Shown: positions 1 through 62,855, counted from the first letter of the stretch. The stretch is 64,000 bases of DNA from Escherichia phage 241Ecol014PP (OR062943.1); one strand, 5' to 3'. Notes: generated by a model not told the origin, from the sequence alone. A program made the numbers and translations.

Positions 1-477
1 TGGTATGGTAGCATTTTTGCGGCCCTGTTTACATTCAGTAATGTATGTATGACCCTTGTTGTGTGGGCGTTTAGACGTCTAGACGGTTGGAAGTCTACAG
101 GTCAATATCTAATCTATTGGCTGCTAACTATATCCCACACAAATAGTAAGAAATATGATTGTTATATGCGTAAACTGTAACTCATGTTATCAATCCCTGT
201 ATGTATCGCCAGTGGTGCGCATAATGGGTATTATGTTAAATTGCCCGTAATGATAACTATTCTCACAATGATAGGTATTCTCATTCACCCCACAAGATAG
301 GTTGCAAATGTTGTGCCACTGTGTGAACGGCCTAGCCTATTAATTTGCCTCACTGCCTTGATATTTGAGAATTGTTATAAGAATGAGAAGTATTCCCATT
401 TCGTCCGCCTGGCAGCACTCCAGTCGCTACGGCTCATGACAAGGCAGAACTGGACCTGTTCAGATATTTCTGGCTGA

Positions 478-1036
478 CTCTTCAGGTCTGTGTGGGAAAA
501 GCCAACCTCTCCGGCGGGGCAGGGGGTCATGACGGGAAAATTGCAGGTCAATTAAAAAATTTACGTGGTGTATGAAGCGCTCTTCAGGTAAGGCATATAT
601 TATGGGATGAAACCCTCTTCAGGCAATGATATTTGTGGGTGTGATATTTGCTGGAAAGCCAGATATGACGGGACTCCCGGCGGGGCAGGGGTAGTACAGA
701 CAGGGAAAATATGAGGATGTAGTTGGGGAAATTGATCAGACAGGTAGAGTATGGAATATGTTACAAGTATGTTAAATATGGAGGTTGAATATCTGTAGGA
801 TTTGTGTGTAAAATCAAAGACTTAAGGGGTGTTGTGGTATTTTCTATAAATAATTCAAGTTTAATAGGCAATATTTGTCTCTATCCGCTTTGTGTGGTAA
901 ACAGATTCAGATTAGATTGGTTTACAAGTGTATACATAATATACAAATTAAAGATACAAGAAACCCCCCTCCCCCTTCGGCTACCATTCACCTTTTCCTC
1001 TGACTGGTACTTAAACACTTATTCAGACTCTTCAGG
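478..1036. repeat. Dispersed 9-bp repeat CTCTTCAGG, 4 copies (478-486, 580-588, 615-623, 1028-1036) in ORF-poor region
   Basis: Direct reading; no ORF longer than 86 aa in 1-1300. Confidence 0.5.
505..715. repeat. Two copies of composite element CCGGCGGGGCAGGGG (511-525, 677-690) with ATGACGGGA (526-536, 663-673) in rearranged order
   Basis: Direct reading of both copies. Confidence 0.5.
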
Positions 1037-1386
1037 TTATCACCCATATATCATATGGCAGTGACTGGTGTCCTCCGGCCCCTCTTTCGTCACCCGTCCG
1101 CTTCGCCATGCTAATGCCATAGCCAATGGTTCGGTTGTTCACCCTGTTCACTCAGGTGTATCTCCATACCCCTTCAAACCGAAGAGAACAGAAAACCCGA
1201 ATTACTCGGTAAAAGAAAAGAGAAGAACTTAATTTTATCAGGATAGGCAAGAATGTCAAGGCATGACTGCTCACTAAACAAGCAAACAGTCATGTGTGGG
1301 AGGTAAGTGATTGTGGTGGTAGGAAATTTAGTTGAAAGATGTGTTATAGGTGCTTCCAGCACTTTAGCCGGGCAGCTAATTGTGTG

Positions 1387-1602
1387 TCAGTCCAGCGGTT
1401 CATCCTCTACTTCACTGAAATCAATATTCATGGTCTCTTCCCAACCATCGATCTCAGCACAAGAGTGGAGTTCTTTAGGGTTTACTCCCAAAGCCTCAGC
1501 AACAGAGTCTATATTTAACACCTCTGGCAGGTATGATTCATCGAATTCAAGGTAAATCAGGCCACGAGTGTTGTCAGCCCCACCAAATATTTCTATCTTC
1601 AT
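1387..1602 (-). CDS. hypothetical small acidic protein
   Basis: ORF track; same strand as adjacent leftward gene block. Confidence 0.4.
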   Translation of the reverse strand: MKIEIFGGADNTRGLIYLEFDESYLPEVLNIDSVAEALGVNPKELHSCAEIDGWEETMNIDFSEVEDEPLD

Positions 1603-41189: not shown

Positions 41190-41236
41190 TCCCTGCTATT
41201 TTAAAGAAAATTGCCACACAAGGAGAATCAGGAGAT

Positions 41237-41587
41237 ATGAAAGATGGGGATAAGCTGCTATATCTTAAAGTCCCCCTTGAAATACTATCTATGTCAAAAG
41301 TTTTGAATGACACAACTGGGGAGGTTGTTGTTCTTGACTTGTATGACAAGATCGTATACTGCTACCTGCACAACTGGTATAAGCTTGGAGGAAGTTCACG
41401 CTTCACACCCAGCACAAGGAAAATTGCAGCAGATGTTGGAATAAAGAAAACAAAAGCAGCAGCGTGCGTTAAAACTTTAGAATGTGCGGGAGTGGTTGAA
41501 ATATCCACACAAGGGAGAGGTAAAAGATGCACATTTTCCAAAGTTTTGCCACCAGAAGAAGTTATTCGAATGTCAACAACTGGTTAG
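41237..41587 (+). CDS. putative DNA-binding (HTH) protein, candidate origin/iteron-binding protein
   Basis: Small basic ORF immediately upstream of iteron array. Confidence 0.45.
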   Translation: MKDGDKLLYLKVPLEILSMSKVLNDTTGEVVVLDLYDKIVYCYLHNWYKLGGSSRFTPSTRKIAADVGIKKTKAAACVKTLECAGVVEISTQGRGKRCTFSKVLPPEEVIRMSTTG

Positions 41588-41661
41588 ACCAGTAAAAACT
41601 TAAATATCTGTACTATAAGGATTCGTATGTTTTATGTTCGCTCTGGAACAGAGGTTAGTAA

Positions 41662-41745
41662 CTGTCCGTGATACGGACACTACTGTCCGTCACGCGGACA
41701 CATCTGTCCGTAATACGGACACTAACTGTCCGTGATACGGACACA
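41662..41745. repeat. Four tandem palindromic iterons TGTCCGT-NNNN-ACGGACA at 21-22 bp spacing (cores 41663-41679, 41684-41700, 41705-41721, 41727-41743)
   Basis: Direct reading; each unit is an inverted repeat. Confidence 0.85.
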
Positions 41746-41880
41746 TAAAGAATATAACTAAAATAACTAAATAATAAAAAACAAAAGATCTAGTACTTAT
41801 GGTACTAAGTACATATACTTAACTTATGTAGAATATATTAGATCCTAAGTACTATGTTTTAAATTTATTACTTACTATGG
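41746..41880. promoter_or_regulatory. AT-rich tract with AGTACTTA/TAAGTACT inverted repeats; candidate DNA-unwinding element
   Basis: Direct reading; sits between iterons and GC-rich island. Confidence 0.5.
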
Positions 41881-42140
41881 GTAGTGTCGGCCCTTCATTG
41901 GCACTCGCCTACGAGGGGCGAGATGCCGGGCCTCCCTGGTGCACACAATAACAGAAGTGCATACATGCAGGTCTGTTAACATGTGTGGGAGCGAAGCGAT
42001 AGCGCAGGCCAAAGTCCGAGCACTGATGTGGACCACCGACGAAAGCTTGCCAGCGCCGGAAGGAGTCGGTTGAGAGTCTCCCGCGCGAGCTTGGATGAAG
42101 TTTATGTGTGGAAACGGACAAGAAGGCCCCTAAATCGCTC
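41881..42140. ncRNA. GC-rich non-coding island with multiple stem-loops; candidate structured RNA or origin-associated element
   Basis: Local GC far above flanks; hairpin CTCGCC-tacgag-GGCGAG at 41905-41922; AAGCTTGC (42044-51) / GCGAGCTT (42086-93) long-range complement. Confidence 0.35.
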
Positions 42141-42247
42141 CACAGCTATATAAACTATATCAGGTAAGGCAATCGCACCAGTTTGATAGAAAAGCTCGTT
42201 ACAAAGCGATACAGTGAGTTTTTCTATAACTTGAAGAGGAGGCAGCT

Positions 42248-44125: not shown

Positions 44126-44200
44126 GCCCTGTTAGCTTAGTGGATAAAGCAGCGGCCTTCTAAGCCGTTGACACTGGTTCGAGTCCAGTACGGGGTGCCA
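44126..44200 (+). tRNA. tRNA-Arg (anticodon TCT), CCA encoded
   Basis: Manual cloverleaf: acceptor GCCCTGT/ACGGGGT (two G-U), D GCTT/AAGC, anticodon loop CTTCTAA. Confidence 0.75.
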
Positions 44201-44330
44201 AGTTCTTTTTAATGTAGCTTACTTTAGCAGAGTAAATCTTCGGCAAGTGGCGGTAACCACTTTACCGATACCTCATAGTTAGTGGTGAGAACACTAGCTA
44301 TTTTAAAAAGAATTTAAATATTAGTATTTA

Positions 44331-44418
44331 GGTGAGTTAATTCCGTAGGGGTAGCGGGGCAGACTGTAAATCTGTTATCATTGCGATTCGGGTGGTTCGA
44401 CTCCATCACTCACCACCA
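44331..44418 (+). tRNA. tRNA-Tyr (anticodon GTA), class II, CCA encoded
   Basis: Acceptor GGTGAGT/ACTCACC; anticodon arm GCAGA-CTGTAAA-TCTGT as in recalled E. coli tRNA-Tyr. Confidence 0.8.
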
Positions 44419-44532
44419 AATTTATATTTTTAAATGCATAAATCATACAGATAATGGCATTGATATTTATCGTCGTTTATACTAGTCACTAACTGCTCGA
44501 AAATCAGTGTCATTATCAGTATTGTTTATAAA

Positions 44533-44623
44533 AGAGGGTAGGGAGCAATGGTGCTCAAGCGGTCTTGAAAACCGTCCCGTTGAGGATGACTCGATGATGG
44601 TTCGATTCCATTATCCTCTGCCA
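44533..44623 (+). tRNA. tRNA-Ser (anticodon TGA), class II, CCA encoded
   Basis: Acceptor AGAGGGT/ATCCTCT; anticodon loop CTTGAAA; long variable arm. Confidence 0.7.
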
Positions 44624-44721
44624 TATTGTTGACCTTGTAATTAAGCGAAAGCCGGAAGCAGAACCGGATTATCAAATGTTACAGTCGTCATCGCCGACTA
44701 GCAACATGGTCAACATACTGA

Positions 44722-44820
44722 GCTAGGTAAGCCCTTTGGCAAGGGCGAGGATTTTTAATCCTGAAAATAGACGAGGTAGTCGTTGAATACATAGGTGGTT
44801 CGATTCCACCGCCTAGCACC
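44722..44820 (+). tRNA. atypical ~97-nt tRNA-like element; anticodon unassigned (possibly TTT)
   Basis: Perfect acceptor GCTAGGT/GCCTAGC and T-arm GGTGG-TTCGATT-CCACC, but 65 nt between acceptor and T-arm. Confidence 0.4.
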
Positions 44821-44825
44821 TTTTT

Positions 44826-44901
44826 GCTGATGTAGCACAATTGGTAGTGCAATTGATTTGTAATCAATAGGTTGCAGGTTCAAGTCCTGCCATCAGCACC
44901 A
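44826..44901 (+). tRNA. tRNA-Thr (anticodon TGT), CCA encoded
   Basis: Full canonical 76-nt cloverleaf; anticodon loop TTTGTAA. Confidence 0.85.
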
Positions 44902-44902
44902 T

Positions 44903-44977
44903 GGCCCTGTAGCTGGAAGGTTCAAGCAAGCGACTCATAATCGCCAGACGGTGGTTCAATTCCACCCAGGGCCACCA
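44903..44977 (+). tRNA. tRNA-Met or tRNA-Ile2 (anticodon CAT), elongator type, CCA encoded
   Basis: Acceptor GGCCCTG/CAGGGCC paired at 1-72; anticodon loop CTCATAA. Confidence 0.8.
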
Positions 44978-46232: not shown

Positions 46233-46516
46233 GAGTTGCTGCACTGTTTATTGTGTGCTTGTTATTGTGTGGGTGTGCAACCAGCGTTGAGAGAGAATAC
46301 AAGATTGACCCTCCAGATGTAGGAAGGTTGATTGTTAAACCCCCGGAAGGTGCCATGAAACCACCTGCTAAAGCTATACCTTTAAAGAAAGGTGCGCCAG
46401 ATGCGGTGAATTCTGGCATTATGAGGGATAATAATCTGTCTTGTAGCAATGATAGAGCTAAATTGATCATTTTGCAAGACTATATTAGAACACTGTTTCC
46501 AAAGGAGAGAGGTTAA
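46229..46516 (+). CDS. o-spanin-like outer-membrane lipoprotein (proline-rich)
   Basis: Signal peptide with LLCGC lipobox-like Cys; KPPEGAMKPPAKAIP. Confidence 0.55.
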   Translation: MRVAALFIVCLLLCGCATSVEREYKIDPPDVGRLIVKPPEGAMKPPAKAIPLKKGAPDAVNSGIMRDNNLSCSNDRAKLIILQDYIRTLFPKERG

Positions 46517-46944
46517 TGTCTAAGATTTACGGACCGTGTTCTGAAAAGCAGAAGATGATCCTAGAAAACGATGCAGATATTTTGGTAATCGGCGGTGCCG
46601 CAGGGTCTGGCAAGTCGTTCCTCTTGCAGTTGATGCCACTTAAAATTATTGATGACCCCCACAGCTCTGTGGTTATGTTCCGAAGAACAACCCCACAGTT
46701 GGAAGGTGAGGGTGGACTATGGCCTAAAGCAGTAGCTATTTATAGTGATCTGCCTGAAAACATTAAGCCAAAGTTCAGAGAGAAGGATCATAAGTTCATT
46801 TTCCCACGATTTGATCCGAGAACTGGCAAGTGGGATAGAAGCAAAAAGGGAGCTGTTGTAAAATACTGCCACATGGAGTATGTACAAGATAAGCTTAACC
46901 ATCAAGGGCTTGAGTACACCATGGTTTGCTTCGATGAGGGTTAA
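46516..46944 (+). CDS. terL: terminase large subunit, exon 1 (ATPase: Walker A and B)
   Basis: Walker A GGAAGSGKS; ends right after Walker B VCFDEG. Confidence 0.8.
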   Translation: MSKIYGPCSEKQKMILENDADILVIGGAAGSGKSFLLQLMPLKIIDDPHSSVVMFRRTTPQLEGEGGLWPKAVAIYSDLPENIKPKFREKDHKFIFPRFDPRTGKWDRSKKGAVVKYCHMEYVQDKLNHQGLEYTMVCFDEG

Positions 46945-47857
46945 TTTGTAGCTCTCGTAAAACCTCCCTAATTGCGGGGAAATCTTTATTATTGACACCA
47001 CCAACCTGTCATGGTAACATGATAGAGGCTTCGAAGAGAGATCGAAGGTATGGTAACAGTGTGTTAATTTAGATAATCCGCAGCGAAGCGTCCGAGAGGA
47101 TGAACGTTCAACGACTAGTCGAAAGACGTAGAATCAAGCGATTCGAAACGGGAGGGTGAATGTGTAATACTAAAAAATGTATGGATTGCCAAAGAGTTCT
47201 ACCTATTGATGATTTCTTTTTATCATCTAAGAGCAAGGATGGATACTCAGGTACATGCAAGGAATGCTATATGTACTACAGGAAGGGTGGATCTCGTAAA
47301 AACAAAAATATGGTTAAGAGAGATGACGCAGCATTGTTTATTCAAGACTTGCTGGAGAAAGGTGAACTTTTTGAATGCAAATCTTGTCATGAAAGTATGC
47401 TAGCTGATAGTTTTTACACAAAACGTGACTATGGTAAAGTATATCTGGTTACGAACAGGTGTAAGATGTGTGAAAAGTTTTATCAGATTGAGAAGAAATT
47501 TCACATAACAAAAGATGAATACTATCGTCTACTCTCAGATCAAGATCATAAGTGTGCCATTTGTAGAATATCCCTTGATGAGTATAGGACGCAAGGGTAC
47601 AGAGATTTCTTTTGTGTTGATCATGACCATAAAACTGGTGCTGTAAGAGGGTTGCTTTGTGATAAATGCAACAGAGCTTTAGGTTTCTTCCAAGAAGATG
47701 AGGAAACTATTCTTAGAGCGGCAGAGTATTTACACATTCATAAGATATAGTCTGGTCTGCATGGAGACATGCAGCTGCCTGAAAATGGCGGGGCAAGACT
47801 AGCGACCTTGCCCGAACATAAACGACACAATTCGAATGGGAGCAGATAGACTATCTG
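46945..47857 (+). mobile_element. putative group I intron in terL carrying an Endo VII-family endonuclease ORF (boundaries approximate)
   Basis: P AATTGCGGGGAAA (46970-46982), Q AATCCGCAGC (47066-47075), R GTTCAACGACTAGTC (47106-47120); internal TTGACA-17-TAACAT (46992-47020). Confidence 0.65.
47160..47750 (+). CDS. Endonuclease VII-family homing endonuclease (intron ORF)
   Basis: CVDHDHKTGAVRGLLCDKCNRALG; N-terminal Cys-rich zinc-finger-like repeats. Confidence 0.7.
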   Translation: MCNTKKCMDCQRVLPIDDFFLSSKSKDGYSGTCKECYMYYRKGGSRKNKNMVKRDDAALFIQDLLEKGELFECKSCHESMLADSFYTKRDYGKVYLVTNRCKMCEKFYQIEKKFHITKDEYYRLLSDQDHKCAICRISLDEYRTQGYRDFFCVDHDHKTGAVRGLLCDKCNRALGFFQEDEETILRAAEYLHIHKI

Positions 47858-48946
47858 ATGTCTCGTCTGCGATCTCAGTCAAAGTATCCATCAAGAATGG
47901 TTATCAGCTGTAACCCCGATTCAGAACACATGCTTGCCAAACTGGTTAGATGGTGGTTGGACGATGAAGGGTATCCAGATCCGGAGAAATGCGGTAAGAA
48001 AAGATATTTTATCCGACGCGACGGTGAATTTATCTGGGGAGACTCTAAAGAAGAGTTGATAGAGAAATACACCACGGTTAACGGACTGGGTGTGGAGATC
48101 AAGCCGAGACCGTTGTCATTCTCGTTTATAGGCGCAACAATATTCGATAATCCTGTCTGCTTAAGAGACAACCCAGAATACCTTGCTTTCCTTGAAGGTC
48201 TGCCGGAACTGGAAAAAGCTCAGCTTCTTCATGGTAACTGGTTTGCAAAGCCTGAGGGTGCAAACTATTTTCAAAGATCTTTCCTTCGTGATGCCGATAG
48301 AGTACCCCTTGGATCAGTATCTTGTAGGGCATGGGATAAGGCAGGAACCGAGAGAACTTCCGGTAATAAATTTCCTGACTTTACCGCCAGTGTTAAGGTA
48401 AGTAAAGATAGCGACGGCTTTTATTACCTGTCCGGTGATTATTGTCCTGAGAACGTGGATGACGGGAGGTATTCCACAGGTCTGGAAGGTAAGTTCTGTA
48501 AAAAGGCTGGTGAACGAGATGTGATCATCAGGAAACAGGCGCAGTTTGATGGTGACGATTGTATAATCGTATTCTCTGTGGACCCAGGTCAGGCAGGTAA
48601 GAGTGAGTTCTTAACCTCCTCCAGATCCTTACTCGCCGAAGGGTTTAGGGTTGAAGAAGACCCAATGCCTTCCAACAAATCTAAACTGACAAGATTCTCA
48701 CCTTTTGCCAATCTTGCCCAACAAGGAATGGTGAGGATTGTAAAATCCAGTTTCCATCCTGATACTCTGGAAGCATTTCTGACTGAACTTGAAAAATTCA
48801 ACGGGGAAAGATCAACATTTAACAGAAAAGACGACTGGGCCGACTGTGTAGCTTCTGCGATTAATTTCCTGGAGAAAGAGGAGGTAGCACTTCCTTGTGT
48901 GATTCCATCAATCTCATCACCTTCTATGTTCAAGCGTTTTATCTAA
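47858..48946 (+). CDS. terL: terminase large subunit, exon 2 (nuclease domain)
   Basis: VISCNP coupling-motif-like block and C-terminal DDWADCVA; 5' boundary approximate. Confidence 0.8.
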   Translation: MSRLRSQSKYPSRMVISCNPDSEHMLAKLVRWWLDDEGYPDPEKCGKKRYFIRRDGEFIWGDSKEELIEKYTTVNGLGVEIKPRPLSFSFIGATIFDNPVCLRDNPEYLAFLEGLPELEKAQLLHGNWFAKPEGANYFQRSFLRDADRVPLGSVSCRAWDKAGTERTSGNKFPDFTASVKVSKDSDGFYYLSGDYCPENVDDGRYSTGLEGKFCKKAGERDVIIRKQAQFDGDDCIIVFSVDPGQAGKSEFLTSSRSLLAEGFRVEEDPMPSNKSKLTRFSPFANLAQQGMVRIVKSSFHPDTLEAFLTELEKFNGERSTFNRKDDWADCVASAINFLEKEEVALPCVIPSISSPSMFKRFI

Positions 48947-55194: not shown

Positions 55195-55659
55195 ATGCTA
55201 AAGGTTAAATGTCAAACAAGGTTCAACCTAAAGCGCTTAGATCGCTTCTACAAAGACCTTGTGAGACTTGAAAGTAAAACAATAACCTACGGCTTTTATG
55301 ACGAACCTCACTCGTCAGGCTTAAATATGGCAACATTGGCAGCCATTCACAACTTCGGTTGGAACGGGCTGCCTGTTCGCAATTTCATGGAGACAGCCTT
55401 TGCATTTCATAGTACTCAACTGCAGACCTTGACAGAAAAATTGTTGAGAGCTATGGCCAGAGGATCAAGTGCAGAGGCCATTCTTAAGCAGATGGGGGAC
55501 ACAGGGGCCAAAGCTATCCAGTTTGTTATTGAGGCTGGACAGTTTAGTAATCCTACTGTCAGTGAGCAGTGGGCACAAGAGAAAGGCTTCAACGAGGCTA
55601 TGCGGCATTACGATGTGCTGCTTGAATCTGCAACCTTTAAAATTGGACAGCAAAAATAA
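55195..55659 (+). CDS. virion morphogenesis protein (unknown)
   Basis: Start trimmed to ATG after GAGGGA. Confidence 0.45.
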   Translation: MLKVKCQTRFNLKRLDRFYKDLVRLESKTITYGFYDEPHSSGLNMATLAAIHNFGWNGLPVRNFMETAFAFHSTQLQTLTEKLLRAMARGSSAEAILKQMGDTGAKAIQFVIEAGQFSNPTVSEQWAQEKGFNEAMRHYDVLLESATFKIGQQK

Positions 55660-59528: not shown

Positions 59529-61865
59529 ATGGCTACAAACAAAATAGTTGCCACAACAGTCAACAAGATTGGCTTTGAGATAGAGAACTCCTCCTACAAA
59601 AAAGCTGTAGAGAAAATTCGCAGTATTGGGAGGGAGTTCAGGAAACTTGGCGAGGATTTTAACTCAGCCAACCCCATGAGTAGATGGCAGGCGGTAGCTG
59701 TTAAAACCCAGCAGACAATGCAGCGGGTTGCCAGACAGCAATCTCAGGCAAATGCTAAACTGCACAGAGAGAGCGTAGCACAGGCCAAGAAAGAGGCTGC
59801 AGTAAGGGCTGCAATAGAACGTAGGGAGAATGCGAGACGTAAACAAGCTGTAGGTAATCTTACCGCTAAAAATCCAGAAATGGCTAGGATGCGTAAGTTC
59901 TACCAGCAGCAAGCTAAAGAGGCCAAAAAGGCTGCCAAATCTGCACCAGTGTCTTACGGCGGTTATAAGCCACCTAAGGCAAGAGTTCTGGCTAATACTA
60001 AAGCTTTCAAATATATCCCCGGTAACCCTAATATGGGTGGTGTGGCTTCCGACCCTAATCTTGTGAAAGCTCAGACAGCTGCTATGAATCGTTATCATAG
60101 ACAGCTAAGAAGGGACGGTAAAGCTGGTATGGATAATAGGCTTATGTCGGATCGTGAGGCAAGAAGAACCCACCTCTACAACTCCGCGATAAGACTTTCT
60201 GCCAAGTATGGTGCCGGATTCCGTGGAAGCTTGCCAGGATACTCAGAGTTAGAGTCCAGGTTTGCTCGCGGGGAGATGAAAAAGTCAACCTTTAACGCCC
60301 ACCTGTCAGCGCTGCAGTCTGGATTTAAAAGTGCCACCAGCCAAACGCTTACACTAGGCGATGCCATGAGAGACTTACGTAGATCTGTTATTAATGCAAC
60401 AGCTGCGTATACAGCTTTTTCTGGATTTGCTGCGGTTAACAGATCCGGTCACATGATGGAGGGGGCAAGTGCTGCTCTTACTGCTGTTACTGGAGATCCA
60501 AACAAAGCCAACAGTGAGGTTGCGTTTGTCCAGCAAGAGGCTATGCGTCTTGGTTTTGATCTCAAATCTGGTCTTCAAGGTTACGCCCAAATGTCGGTAA
60601 ACGCCAAAAACCAGATGACAAACCAGGAAGTGCATGAGCTGTTTTCTGCATACTCCCAGTATGCTGCTGCTTATGGTGCCGATGAGGTAAAATACCAGCG
60701 CGGTATTATGGCAATCCAACAGATGCTCGGGAAGGGACAAGTAATGTCCGAAGAGCTGAAGCAACAACTTGCTGAAGCATTGCCTGGTGCATATGAACCT
60801 TTTATCAAGGCCACCAAAGAGGCTTTTGGTCTTTCTGAACTCTCCATGGATCAGTTCATGGACATGATGAAGAAAGGTGAGGTTAAAACAGCCAAGATCA
60901 TGAAGTATGTGGCTAAGTACATGAACGAGGCATCTGCAGCTGGTTATGAAAGAATGCAGAAGTCTAACGTGCTGGCAGAAAACAGACTGAAAACCTTCAT
61001 CGAACTGACTCGTCAGAAACTGTTCACCCGTTGGTCTGACGAACTAACAGAGTTCTATTATACACTAATCCGCACTGGTGAGACTCTGCAATTTGTGTGG
61101 GATGCCTCTGGTGATTTTGTTAGCGGGTTTGTGAGAGGCCTTAACTGGGTAGTTGGTGAACTAAACAATACTATAGTTAAGATCCGCATGTTTTTCCTTG
61201 AATGGGGGATTAAATGGGGATTCATAACAGCTAAGACGAAGGAATATTCTGAAGAGCTTCATGACACCTTTAGCTATGCTAAATGGGCAGGGTTTGCTGC
61301 TGCCATCATGCTGGTCGTCAACGCCCTAACAAAAGGTTTTGTCATGGCATCTATGCTTGTAAAAACCTTTAAATTCCTTAATTCTCTAAGAGGTGCAGCT
61401 GGAGCAGCAGGTGCAGCTACTGCAGAAGGATCTGGTGGTGGTGGCGCGGCAGGAAAAGGTGGAGGTGGCCTCAAGACACCTGGTGGTAAAGTTGGTCTGC
61501 TTGGCAAGCTGGGCATTATCGGTACAATATTAAGCGCCGGGGAATTATTTAATGACCGTTTCAACCCACTGAGTGAAAGAAATCAGCAACTGGATACTAT
61601 CAGCGATATGATTCGCAAAGATATCATATCGGGAGGTAACGGGTTTGTTAATCCTTTGGACACCTTACCGGGCGGGACTCTTCCGTTGCCGGGTGGCCCT
61701 GGTTTTGCTTCTCAATTAAGAACTATGGAAATGCTACCTTTAGAGATCAGTGATGGGAAAATCACGATTTCAATAGATGAGGGTGAGTTTAACAAAATAT
61801 TTGATGCAAAACTTGAGTGGGAGAACAATAAAGATATCAACTTCATGTCTACCGACCTTTGGTAA
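59529..61865 (+). CDS. tail tape measure protein
   Basis: 778 aa; coiled-coil N-terminus; Gly-rich GAAGAAGAATAEGSGGGGAAGKGGGG; follows chaperone. Confidence 0.8.
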   Translation: MATNKIVATTVNKIGFEIENSSYKKAVEKIRSIGREFRKLGEDFNSANPMSRWQAVAVKTQQTMQRVARQQSQANAKLHRESVAQAKKEAAVRAAIERRENARRKQAVGNLTAKNPEMARMRKFYQQQAKEAKKAAKSAPVSYGGYKPPKARVLANTKAFKYIPGNPNMGGVASDPNLVKAQTAAMNRYHRQLRRDGKAGMDNRLMSDREARRTHLYNSAIRLSAKYGAGFRGSLPGYSELESRFARGEMKKSTFNAHLSALQSGFKSATSQTLTLGDAMRDLRRSVINATAAYTAFSGFAAVNRSGHMMEGASAALTAVTGDPNKANSEVAFVQQEAMRLGFDLKSGLQGYAQMSVNAKNQMTNQEVHELFSAYSQYAAAYGADEVKYQRGIMAIQQMLGKGQVMSEELKQQLAEALPGAYEPFIKATKEAFGLSELSMDQFMDMMKKGEVKTAKIMKYVAKYMNEASAAGYERMQKSNVLAENRLKTFIELTRQKLFTRWSDELTEFYYTLIRTGETLQFVWDASGDFVSGFVRGLNWVVGELNNTIVKIRMFFLEWGIKWGFITAKTKEYSEELHDTFSYAKWAGFAAAIMLVVNALTKGFVMASMLVKTFKFLNSLRGAAGAAGAATAEGSGGGGAAGKGGGGLKTPGGKVGLLGKLGIIGTILSAGELFNDRFNPLSERNQQLDTISDMIRKDIISGGNGFVNPLDTLPGGTLPLPGGPGFASQLRTMEMLPLEISDGKITISIDEGEFNKIFDAKLEWENNKDINFMSTDLW

Positions 61866-61970: not shown

Positions 61971-62855
61971 ATGCCAAGCAATATAGTTGATGAAAAAGAC
62001 CTGTACAAGCCTCAAGAGGTTAAATCTCCAAAGGCTGAAAAGGCAGAGCAGCAAACTGAAAGCGATGTAAAGTACACTATGTTTGTCAGCGGTCTTAACT
62101 ATGGCGGTCGCAATACGGAGATGAAGGGTAAAAACTTTACTAACGATCTTGCCATTATCTTCGATCAGGTTGAGAATTACTCTTTCAAACATTCTGTTGA
62201 TAAGACTGGGTTTGCGGTGGAAGATAAATCTACCCTGTCAGACCACGCTGTAATTAAAGATGGTGTATTTTCTTTTACTGGTAGGGTAAATACATCCCCA
62301 CACATAATTTATGAGCAAAACTACATTGATAGGAATACTGACTCTAAAAACCCTGCAGCATCTATGCGACCAGGCGCTGCATTGGAGGCTTTGACTGAGA
62401 TTATCAATAAGCGACAGTTGGTTTCTTTGGTTACCGAGGAGAGACTTCTTGAGAACTACATCATAACCAGTCTTTCTGCCAACAAGTCTGTTGGTGAAGG
62501 CGCTGCAATGGTGTTTGATGTAGAGCTTACAGAGTTCCGCACATTCTACTTGAATAAGGTTGTTAATGCAACTGTATACAGCAATCCTAAGAAAGTAGGC
62601 AAAACCCAGCAAAAAGGTGCTGTCAACGACTGTAAGAATGGCAGTAACGTGGGTAACAAGAGGGACACAGGAGCATTCGCAGACACTGCATCCACAAACG
62701 CTGCAGAGGAGTGGCAGCCATACAAATCTATGATGTGGACAGATGAAAACGGTGTTACCCAATCGGCTGCGGATTGGTATTATCAGGAATATGGAAGACC
62801 TTCTACCATAGTCCCCTCTGAGCAGGGAAACTACAACAAAGTTAACGGGAAATAA
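61971..62855 (+). CDS. tail/baseplate protein (unknown)
   Basis: Start trimmed to ATG after GGAGAGG. Confidence 0.5.
   Translation: MPSNIVDEKDLYKPQEVKSPKAEKAEQQTESDVKYTMFVSGLNYGGRNTEMKGKNFTNDLAIIFDQVENYSFKHSVDKTGFAVEDKSTLSDHAVIKDGVFSFTGRVNTSPHIIYEQNYIDRNTDSKNPAASMRPGAALEALTEIINKRQLVSLVTEERLLENYIITSLSANKSVGEGAAMVFDVELTEFRTFYLNKVVNATVYSNPKKVGKTQQKGAVNDCKNGSNVGNKRDTGAFADTASTNAAEEWQPYKSMMWTDENGVTQSAADWYYQEYGRPSTIVPSEQGNYNKVNGK

Follow-up and report, generated by a model that had tools for sequence, protein, structure and literature searches.

The described systems closest in layout to the locus considered here are replication origins in which a dedicated initiator binds repeated sites. The origin of phage lambda contains four palindromic sites of ~18 bp, about two helical turns apart and each bound by a dimer of the winged-helix O protein; these iterons lie inside the O gene, and the C-terminal domain of O recruits P-DnaB. 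RepA_N initiators are also dimeric iteron binders, with iterons inside the rep gene and a C-terminal, host-specific domain. The oriV of IncQ plasmids (RSF1010) joins iterons and GC and AT stretches to the ssiA and ssiB hairpins, which are recognised by the plasmid's own primase. A comparable arrangement was examined in Escherichia phage 241Ecol014PP (OR062943.1), of which a 64,000-nucleotide stretch (the window) was analysed. Between positions 41237 and 42146, a gene for a helix-turn-helix (HTH) protein of 116 residues is followed by four palindromic repeats, an AT-rich tract and a GC-rich island. Sequence comparison inclines us, a little beyond even confidence, to read this locus as an initiator/iteron replication-origin module of an rV5-like phage. 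The behaviour of protein and sites as a cognate pair, the winged-helix fold of the protein, closest to plasmid initiators, the genome-wide uniqueness of the repeats, the AT tract and the gene, and the recurrence of the same layout in plasmids all point that way, and to that extent they support the origin that an initial annotation had proposed here.

The window belongs to an rV5-like Vequintavirus, a group of E. coli myoviruses with genomes of ~136 kb; a 1.2-kb query around the locus matched 118 phage records at 88–99% identity, all of them Vequintavirus. Position 1 of the window is equivalent to 34,557 in the close relative APECc02 (NC_041869, 135.4 kb), whose complete genome served for the whole-genome checks, while column variability was compared among nine diverged genomes of the group. 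Phages of the rV5 type count among the E. coli phages that are isolated most often, and they serve in biocontrol and in therapy cocktails; no replication origin has yet been defined for them. The attempt made in the original genome paper failed, since analysis of AT and GC skew revealed only switches that followed transcription (PMC3606486). The same paper assigned to rV5 a replisome with a T7 gp4-like primase-helicase and a family-A polymerase (PMC3606486). A literature search found no description of an origin, a satellite or a transcriptome for rV5-like phages, and existing records mark the repeats as 'repeat_region' at most. Cumulative GC skew in the APECc02 genome has its global minimum 1.5 kb away from the locus, at a point of divergent transcription.

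The four palindromes are 17 bp long, of the form TGTCCGT-N3-ACGGACA, and were located by pattern search and Tandem Repeats Finder at 41663–41679, 41684–41700, 41705–41721 and 41727–41743 (array 41663–41743, strandless). The first, third and fourth are exact, and the second has one mismatch (GCGGACA). Four copies spaced by 21–22 bp had been correctly annotated, apart from this imperfection, but with a spacer of four nucleotides; that pattern has no match, and N3 is correct. The start-to-start spacing of 21, 21 and 22 bp puts all four sites on one face of the helix, as repeated and helically phased iterons. None of 100 shuffled sequences reached the observed match count, and the array was the best Tandem Repeats Finder match in the window as well as in the APECc02 genome as a whole, across which the palindrome was confined to this locus even when up to two mismatches were allowed. 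The sites are nearly invariant across rV5-like phages, whereas the 20 bp directly upstream vary at 11 of 20 columns. Similarly, variants of the 116-residue protein that are only 85–87% identical retain the same palindrome core while the adjacent DNA diverges. The third palindrome is perfect in the window and reads TGCCCGT in all eight aligned relatives and in three of four further loci. Independent assemblies break within or at the array, two contigs ending 113 nt (L031) and 168 nt (L032) past the HTH stop codon, and by coordinate arithmetic the first base of GenBank record MG065672.1 is the start of the array; the assembly breaks are most likely repeat-induced.

The gene upstream of the array (41237–41587, + strand) encodes the proposed initiator, which comprises a DNA-binding domain only, as judged from PHROG, AlphaFold2 (AF2), Foldseek and hhalign results. 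The protein matched PHROG 12838, 'replication initiation protein', at E = 8.5e-80, and three other initiator PHROGs more weakly. In Pfam, its matches to HTH_36 (22.8 bits, cut-off 25) and DUF6945 (24.9 bits, cut-off 28) fell below threshold; there was no RepA_N or DnaD match at E up to 1 and no match to a small-terminase (TerS) family, while O-family matches were absent from both the Pfam and the PHROG searches. Many depositors label the protein 'putative transcriptional regulator', and RefSeq labels it 'replication initiation protein'. The family is very narrow, with 5 close homologues among 5.8 billion proteins, and an exhaustive search returned 10 matches, few of them informative; for one remote homologue (P0014), no clear iteron array was found in its DNA context. 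The shallow alignment alone gave an AF2 model with a predicted local distance difference test score (pLDDT) of 45, and a few remote homologues were added for the model used (pLDDT 81, predicted template modelling score 0.78). This single-domain model consists of a beta-hairpin, a winged helix (three helices and a long wing) and a helix at the C-terminus; an oligomerisation coiled coil was not seen in it. The top Foldseek match was 4ro3, an uncharacterised N-terminal domain from Vibrio cholerae, followed by the N-terminal domains of RepA_N initiators (4pql, 4pt7, 5kbj and 4pta, including a Rep-DNA complex), which outranked regulators of the CodY, MarR and CRP types. The RepA_N match extends over ~107 residues, taking in the N-terminal strands and the winged helix, at ~21% identity and a TM-score of 0.54–0.60; going by the model, any resemblance of the protein to RepA_N and DnaD-type initiator domains would be one of fold only. 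Just upstream of its ribosome-binding site, at 41213–41219, there is a heptamer of the TGTGTGG type (CCACACA).

Set against the described systems, the locus shares with the lambda origin four phased palindromic sites followed by an AT tract and then a palindromic segment, as well as initiator and sites that co-vary between related phages. It differs in that the sites stand 72 bp beyond the stop codon of the gene, rather than within it, in that the protein is a DNA-binding domain alone, and in having a structured GC element of ~250 bp that is specifically conserved. The likeness to lambda-type origins drawn in the initial annotation is therefore one of function and not of membership, given sites outside the gene, no helicase-recruiting C-terminal domain and no O-family sequence. 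The RepA_N proteins (pSK41 and pTZ2162 RepA; PDB 4PQL, 4PT7, 4PTA and 5KBJ) are the best named structural matches, but again the iterons are outside the phage gene, and the Pfam RepA_N family is not matched.

Evidence that the protein and the palindromes belong together came from L008, a metagenomic rV5-like contig of 137 kb. The phosphoesterase gene, the island and the gene for a 192-residue protein are the same there as in the phage, whereas the HTH position is taken by a distant homologue of 143 residues (27% identity, E = 5e-7), followed by different palindromes, of the GATRCA-N4-TGYATC type, and a different AT tract. With the flanks constant and both protein and sites replaced, the two have been exchanged as one cassette, which argues for a cognate pair, as a binding pair would predict. 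The annotated suggestion that the HTH protein is the natural binder of the repeats gains support from this joint replacement and from the initiator-like winged-helix fold. An L008-type cassette was not found in cultured phages; phage Alma has the normal one.

The AT-rich tract (41745–41880, 136 bp, strandless, 21–30% GC) directly follows the palindromes and is the proposed DNA-unwinding element; as annotated, it contains the inverted repeats AGTACTTA/TAAGTACT. Its counterpart in APECc02 is the 120-nt window of lowest GC content in the entire genome. Two GATC sites are present, at 41787 and 41841. At 41778–41790, on the - strand, the tract includes an exact match to GATCTNTTNTTTT (GATCTTTTGTTTT), the established consensus of the 13-mers of E. 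coli oriC; this is the sole exact copy in the window, and is given modest weight because the search was post hoc. Across the nine rV5-like genomes, the tract has only 0–3 variable columns per 20.

The same segment bears on an alternative, in which the locus is a control site only and the winged-helix protein a repressor or activator, with four operators acting on a promoter in the AT tract that would serve the late operon or a non-coding RNA from the island. Palindromes of this kind are bound by dimeric regulators, a -10-like hexamer (TAAAAT) can be read ~13 bp past the end of the fourth palindrome, and the AT tract is conserved in sequence. Moreover, the array stands at the head of a ~50-kb, rightward block of co-oriented late and structural genes (the 192-residue protein gene, tRNAs, lysis, terminase and structural genes), and the depositors' regulator label would fit. 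However, a scan for consensus sigma-70 promoters found none between the HTH gene and the 192-residue protein gene; the genome has a single cluster of sites, and these lie downstream of the presumed regulator gene instead of over its own promoter. The nearest named families and full-length folds of the protein are initiators, and in the plasmids described below the homologous module combines five iterons, spaced by 23 bp, and an AT tract with the only Rep-like protein found. Regulation without origin function is accordingly judged unlikely, and, because initiators often also regulate, a regulatory role would be compatible with an origin.

Beyond the AT tract, the island (41880–42140) has a GC content of 50–61%. 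The initial annotation was right about this segment; the stable stem-loops that it described are only moderately more stable than those of shuffled sequences, on both strands (z = -2.4 and -2.8). The first hairpin, H1 (41889–41932, + strand), was predicted by RNAalifold with 16 pairs, two of which persist in the plasmid copy despite changes of both partners, and includes an invariant U.G pair on the + strand; folded as single-stranded DNA, it gave z = -3.2 (+) and -3.0 (-). The second, H2 (41937–41985, + strand), is variable (13 and 8 variable columns per 20), and half of it is removed by an 18-nt deletion in O157 typing phage 5 and in Murica, so that it is apparently dispensable. A punctuation motif, TGTGTGGG, follows at 41982–41989 (+ strand), with a second copy as TGTGTGG at 42105–42111; in the islands of phage and plasmids alike, it stands between hairpin modules.

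The conserved core of the island (42026–42087, + strand) was delimited through comparison of phages with plasmids and consists of ATGTGGACC, a 6-bp stem (42035–42040 with 42065–42070) and then GAGTCTCCCGCGCG. The stem encloses an almost invariant segment of 24 nt, GAAAGCTTGCCAGCGCCG(G/T)AAGGA, in which the bracketed G/T is the sole variable position; from the comparison, this loop looks like a recognition sequence presented by the stem. Compensatory changes affect three of the six stem pairs, and there are four G-U intermediates, for which pairing is possible on the + strand alone. Of the cells in the core segment tested (A3), 99% were paired, as against 23–46% once the partners were slid. The core is single-copy in the phage genome and is not thermodynamically special. 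At the 3' end, a motif common to phages and plasmids, CCCCTAAAT, precedes a 3-bp mini-hairpin (42137–42139 with 42144–42146; whole element 42127–42146, + strand) that has changes on both sides in all three pairs. Pairing is thus maintained through compensatory changes in three hairpins, as in a structured single strand; this covariation is suggestive rather than conclusive, because the evolutionary depth is shallow and amounts essentially to phage versus plasmid lineages. By these comparisons, the island is a conserved structured cis element, which the initial annotation had missed.

Searches of the phage and plasmid islands against Rfam 15 at E up to 1 gave no credible match, RNAI and RNAII included; the best score on the phage island, to rli43, was 24.5 bits against a gathering score of 100, a chance match. 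Small open reading frames (ORFs) are annotated within the island in some records, and the island was considered as a coding sequence; this was rejected, as the phage has a stop codon in the frame that is open in plasmids, and the substitutions found are symmetric changes in stems. A host-derived fragment was also rejected, there being no match to E. coli chromosomes and only four plasmids. A 19-mer scan of genome contigs produced chance matches in GC-rich bacteria only, and the match in viral contig L007 is a chance one inside a gene.

Partial matches to the island, 84–87% identical over the core, occur in the unannotated DNA of small E. coli plasmids of ~13 kb. The set comprised seven complete records (six of 13.2–13.7 kb and one of 39.6 kb with three copies) and two metagenomic contigs; the loci are in NZ_CP020521.1 (L004 and L006), NZ_CP043822.1 (L005; 39.6 kb, three copies), CP148565.1 (L020), NZ_CP035869.1 (L021), CP134895.1 (L022), NZ_CP178698.1 (L023) and the metagenomic contigs L024 and L025. 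The island region was aligned for six plasmids and the two contigs, and in the seventh plasmid (CP134895) the match is restricted to the 3' end of the region. Members of the family are ~13.2–13.9 kb in length and non-mobilisable, with ~2.9 kb of non-coding DNA each. A literature search found no description of the family as satellites.

All eight aligned elements have the same order: palindromic repeats, a short AT stretch, a GC-rich hairpin region, and then promoters, small ORFs and a protein of ~300 residues. The repeats number 3–5 copies of 15–23 bp, mostly at 23-bp spacing, and their sequence differs between plasmids. The GC-rich region consists of hairpin modules punctuated by TGTGTGGG and ends in the phage core (ATGTGGACC, stem, GAAAGCTTGCCAGCGCCGGAAGGA, stem, GAGTCTCCCGCGCG); these islands are mosaics in which the number of modules varies. 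Downstream of the core there are sigma-70-like promoters, the small ORFs and the ~300-residue protein, the N-terminus of which is homologous to the HTH protein of the phage (73% probability and E = 3e-5 in hhalign, over residues 22–113). This protein has weak matches to 'replication initiation' and 'O-like' PHROGs, and its N-terminal sequence tracks the type of iteron, so that here, as in L008, protein and sites co-vary. No other replication gene was recognised among eight of the remaining ORFs of CP020521 when these were scanned with Pfam and PHROGs, which leaves the iteron/island module as the only plausible replicon of the plasmids.

The genes of CP020521, the plasmid that was compared in full, further include one for a major capsid protein and others for diverged homologues (38–54% amino acid identity) of three phage proteins, namely the tape measure, a baseplate-region protein and a neck or tail-completion protein (window 55282–55623, 59799–60824 and 62100–62657). 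The nucleotide identity of the core is far above the identity of these shared proteins, and among non-coding sequences it is the island that gives the best nucleotide match of plasmids to phage. The position and orientation of the core relative to the iterons and AT tract are constant in every phage and plasmid examined, whatever the type of iteron. Gene content and the shared element make it probable that these plasmids are satellites of rV5-like phages or reduced relatives of them, not described until now; a helper genome equals about 10 plasmid lengths.

The constancy of the core helps with a narrower question, namely whether only the repeats and AT tract form an origin, the GC island being an unrelated cluster of TGTGTGGG-punctuated hairpins concerned with non-coding RNA, with RNA processing or stability, or with recombination cassettes. 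The motif TGTGTGG/CCACACA is ~4-fold over-represented in the genome (29 + 25 copies against ~7 + 7 expected), and on coding strands a terminator-like hairpin, CCACACA and a ribosome-binding site precede many small early genes, which is reminiscent of T4-type promoter-early stem-loop cassettes. Since similar punctuated hairpins fill a 2.6-kb region elsewhere in the genome (33.4–36.0 kb in APECc02), a broader class of module may include part of the island; the mosaic plasmid islands and the dispensable H2 fit this too. The core does not, being single-copy, more conserved in nucleotides than the shared proteins are in amino acids, and fixed in place and orientation beside the iterons. An unrelated island is consequently a doubtful answer to this question, though one to be taken seriously.

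Another explanation for an element shared by phage and plasmids is packaging. Under this alternative, the island is the pac site, possibly together with the repeats and with the HTH protein as a TerS-like subunit, and the plasmids share it in order to be packaged by the helper's terminase. The rV5-like phages are circularly permuted headful packagers in which the pac site is unmapped (PMC8407724, PMC13211470). The transcription unit also contains the large terminase gene (TerL), which begins 4.8 kb downstream; TerS is neither annotated nor detectable, and the best non-coding match between phage and plasmids is what one would expect of a packaging signal common to both. Furthermore, Nu1 of lambda is a winged-helix binder of repeated sites. 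However, the HTH protein shows neither a TerS family match nor, in its model, the coiled coil for oligomerisation; the plasmids have different repeats and a protein of their own, so that the repeats are not the shared signal; and compensatory changes that preserve hairpins would be unexpected in a double-stranded site. The island is always attached to iterons and an AT tract, in phage and plasmids alike, and the usual place for pac is in or beside terS or terL, not 4–5 kb upstream past a tRNA cluster and lysis genes. The non-coding region at 33.4–36.0 kb would be an equally good candidate. For these reasons packaging is thought a very improbable function of the locus.

Returning to the origin, several points weigh against it. 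Clusters of DnaA boxes or IHF sites were not found at the locus. The near-invariance of the AT tract exceeds the need of a mere unwinding element and suggests that it has further sequence-specific functions. Palindromes bound by dimers are equally typical of operators, and at the head of a ~50-kb late unit a single regulatory site would also be sensible. The 116-residue protein is a DNA-binding domain in which a helicase-recruiting part is not evident; TerL is only 4.8 kb away, with TerS not known; and the 2.6-kb region is a second non-coding region with repeats. The plasmid origins are themselves deduced from sequence. Finally, an origin was not definable in the rV5 genome, where GC skew follows transcription (PMC3606486).

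Taken with these reservations, the locus is still somewhat more probably than otherwise an iteron origin, with initiator/site cassettes that are exchangeable and coupled to a conserved structured element. The analysis shows the anatomy of the locus, its uniqueness in the genome, the class of fold of the protein, the replacement of protein and sites together, the homology of the module to that of the plasmids and covariation in three hairpins. From the comparisons, we infer the following course for binding, melting and origin activity, and for the role and strand of the island. Dimers of the 116-residue winged-helix protein would occupy the four phased palindromes and wrap or bend the DNA, and this distortion could open the adjacent, extremely AT-rich tract with its oriC-type 13-mer. 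The T7-like primase-helicase and family-A polymerase of the phage would enter at the melted tract. The island may then act as single-stranded DNA or RNA, most likely the + strand, either as a priming or loading signal or as an element of a primer transcript; this is a guess, and the weakest step of the series. The closest architectural analogy is IncQ oriV, where iterons, an AT tract and hairpin-forming sequences that act single-stranded likewise follow one another, although there is no sequence similarity, the initiator is RepC rather than a small winged-helix protein, and priming at the phage island is pure conjecture by analogy, the phage primase being T7 gp4-like. T7 gp4 needs no hairpin. 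At the primary origin of T7, the R-loops of T4 oriF and oriG, and ColE1 (RNA II), a structured or persistent transcript that is made beside an AT-rich region primes a family-A or phage polymerase. The T7-like replisome of rV5 provides a likeness to such origins (PMC3606486), but these are without an iteron-binding initiator, no promoter was detected upstream of the phage island, and Rfam gave no match to it, RNAI and RNAII included. A defined initiator/iteron pair would provide a handle for engineering, through origin-based shuttle or reporter constructs and incompatibility, and would open to study the way in which an initiator protein recruits a T7-like replisome.

The shared element and the diverged rV5 tail and capsid genes point to an unnoticed helper/satellite system for a lytic myovirus. 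The satellite PLE of Vibrio cholerae has its own RepA_N initiator and iterons and uses the replisome of its helper phage, which mirrors what the ~13-kb plasmids appear to be. Helper and satellite also share cis sites in P2 and P4 (cos) and in the SaPIs (pac), and here too a short non-coding element is kept between a phage and small elements with diverged structural genes; the difference is that this element comes attached to iterons, with covariation in its base pairs, and that the plasmids are putative satellites. A more specific proposal, made tentatively and held to be rather less probable than not, is that the core is a cis signal of the Vequintavirus replication (or packaging) machinery that was captured by undescribed plasmid satellites of ~13 kb. 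These would keep their own initiator/iteron cassette and be amplified by the T7-like replisome of the helper on infection, while their diverged tail and capsid genes would remodel the helper's virions. If true, this would represent a new class of satellite, of strictly lytic myoviruses, and a new kind of origin-coupled structured element.

Two further observations concern plasmids. The PLSDB entry CP057073.1, a 137,565-bp 'plasmid' of E. coli from cattle faeces, matches the island as a phage does and has the size of one; it is probably the genome of an rV5-like phage that was entered as a plasmid, through a carrier state or contamination. The repeats AATGATAACTATTCTCAC at window 249–283 and AATGATAATAATTCTCATTGAC in the promoter region of the plasmid rep operon (e.g., L004 1584–1612) resemble the E. 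coli Fur box consensus, and this likeness hints at iron-responsive control.

The 2.6-kb region itself corresponds to window 1–1450 (APECc02 33.4–36.0 kb), is without genes and lies at a convergent point and at the maximum of cumulative GC skew. It contains AT-rich patches and tandem repeats, with a 15-mer repeated 3.6 times, an 11-mer repeated 3 times and an 18-mer repeated 1.9 times (window 249–283), in addition to numerous hairpin modules that resemble those of the island, punctuated by TGTGTGGG, and short matches to the non-coding DNA of the plasmids. Coordinate arithmetic showed that several GenBank records start near it. Candidate functions of the region are those of a pac site, a terminus or a second origin.

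Downstream of the island, a 12-bp inverted repeat (ATAGAAAAGCTC ... GAGTTTTTCTAT, with an 18-nt loop; window 42186–42227) lies directly upstream of the ribosome-binding site of the 192-residue protein gene. Its sequence does not vary among the rV5-like genomes examined and hardly differs in L008; it is possibly a translational operator or a processing site. The 192-residue protein had no sequence match in Pfam or PDB, and matched only a PHROG of unknown function. The large terminase gene is split (46516–48946) into an N-terminal ORF of 142 residues (Terminase_6N) and an ORF of 362 residues (Terminase_6N/6C), with an endonuclease VII-like ORF of 196 residues (47160–47750) between them, which suggests an intron, an intein-like element or a homing-endonuclease insertion; no small terminase was recognisable nearby. 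Lastly, there are six tRNA-like genes at 44126–44975, of which 44533–44619 scores best, below threshold, on the tRNA-Sec model; one member of the cluster is marked as a pseudo-tRNA in the RefSeq record for APECc02.

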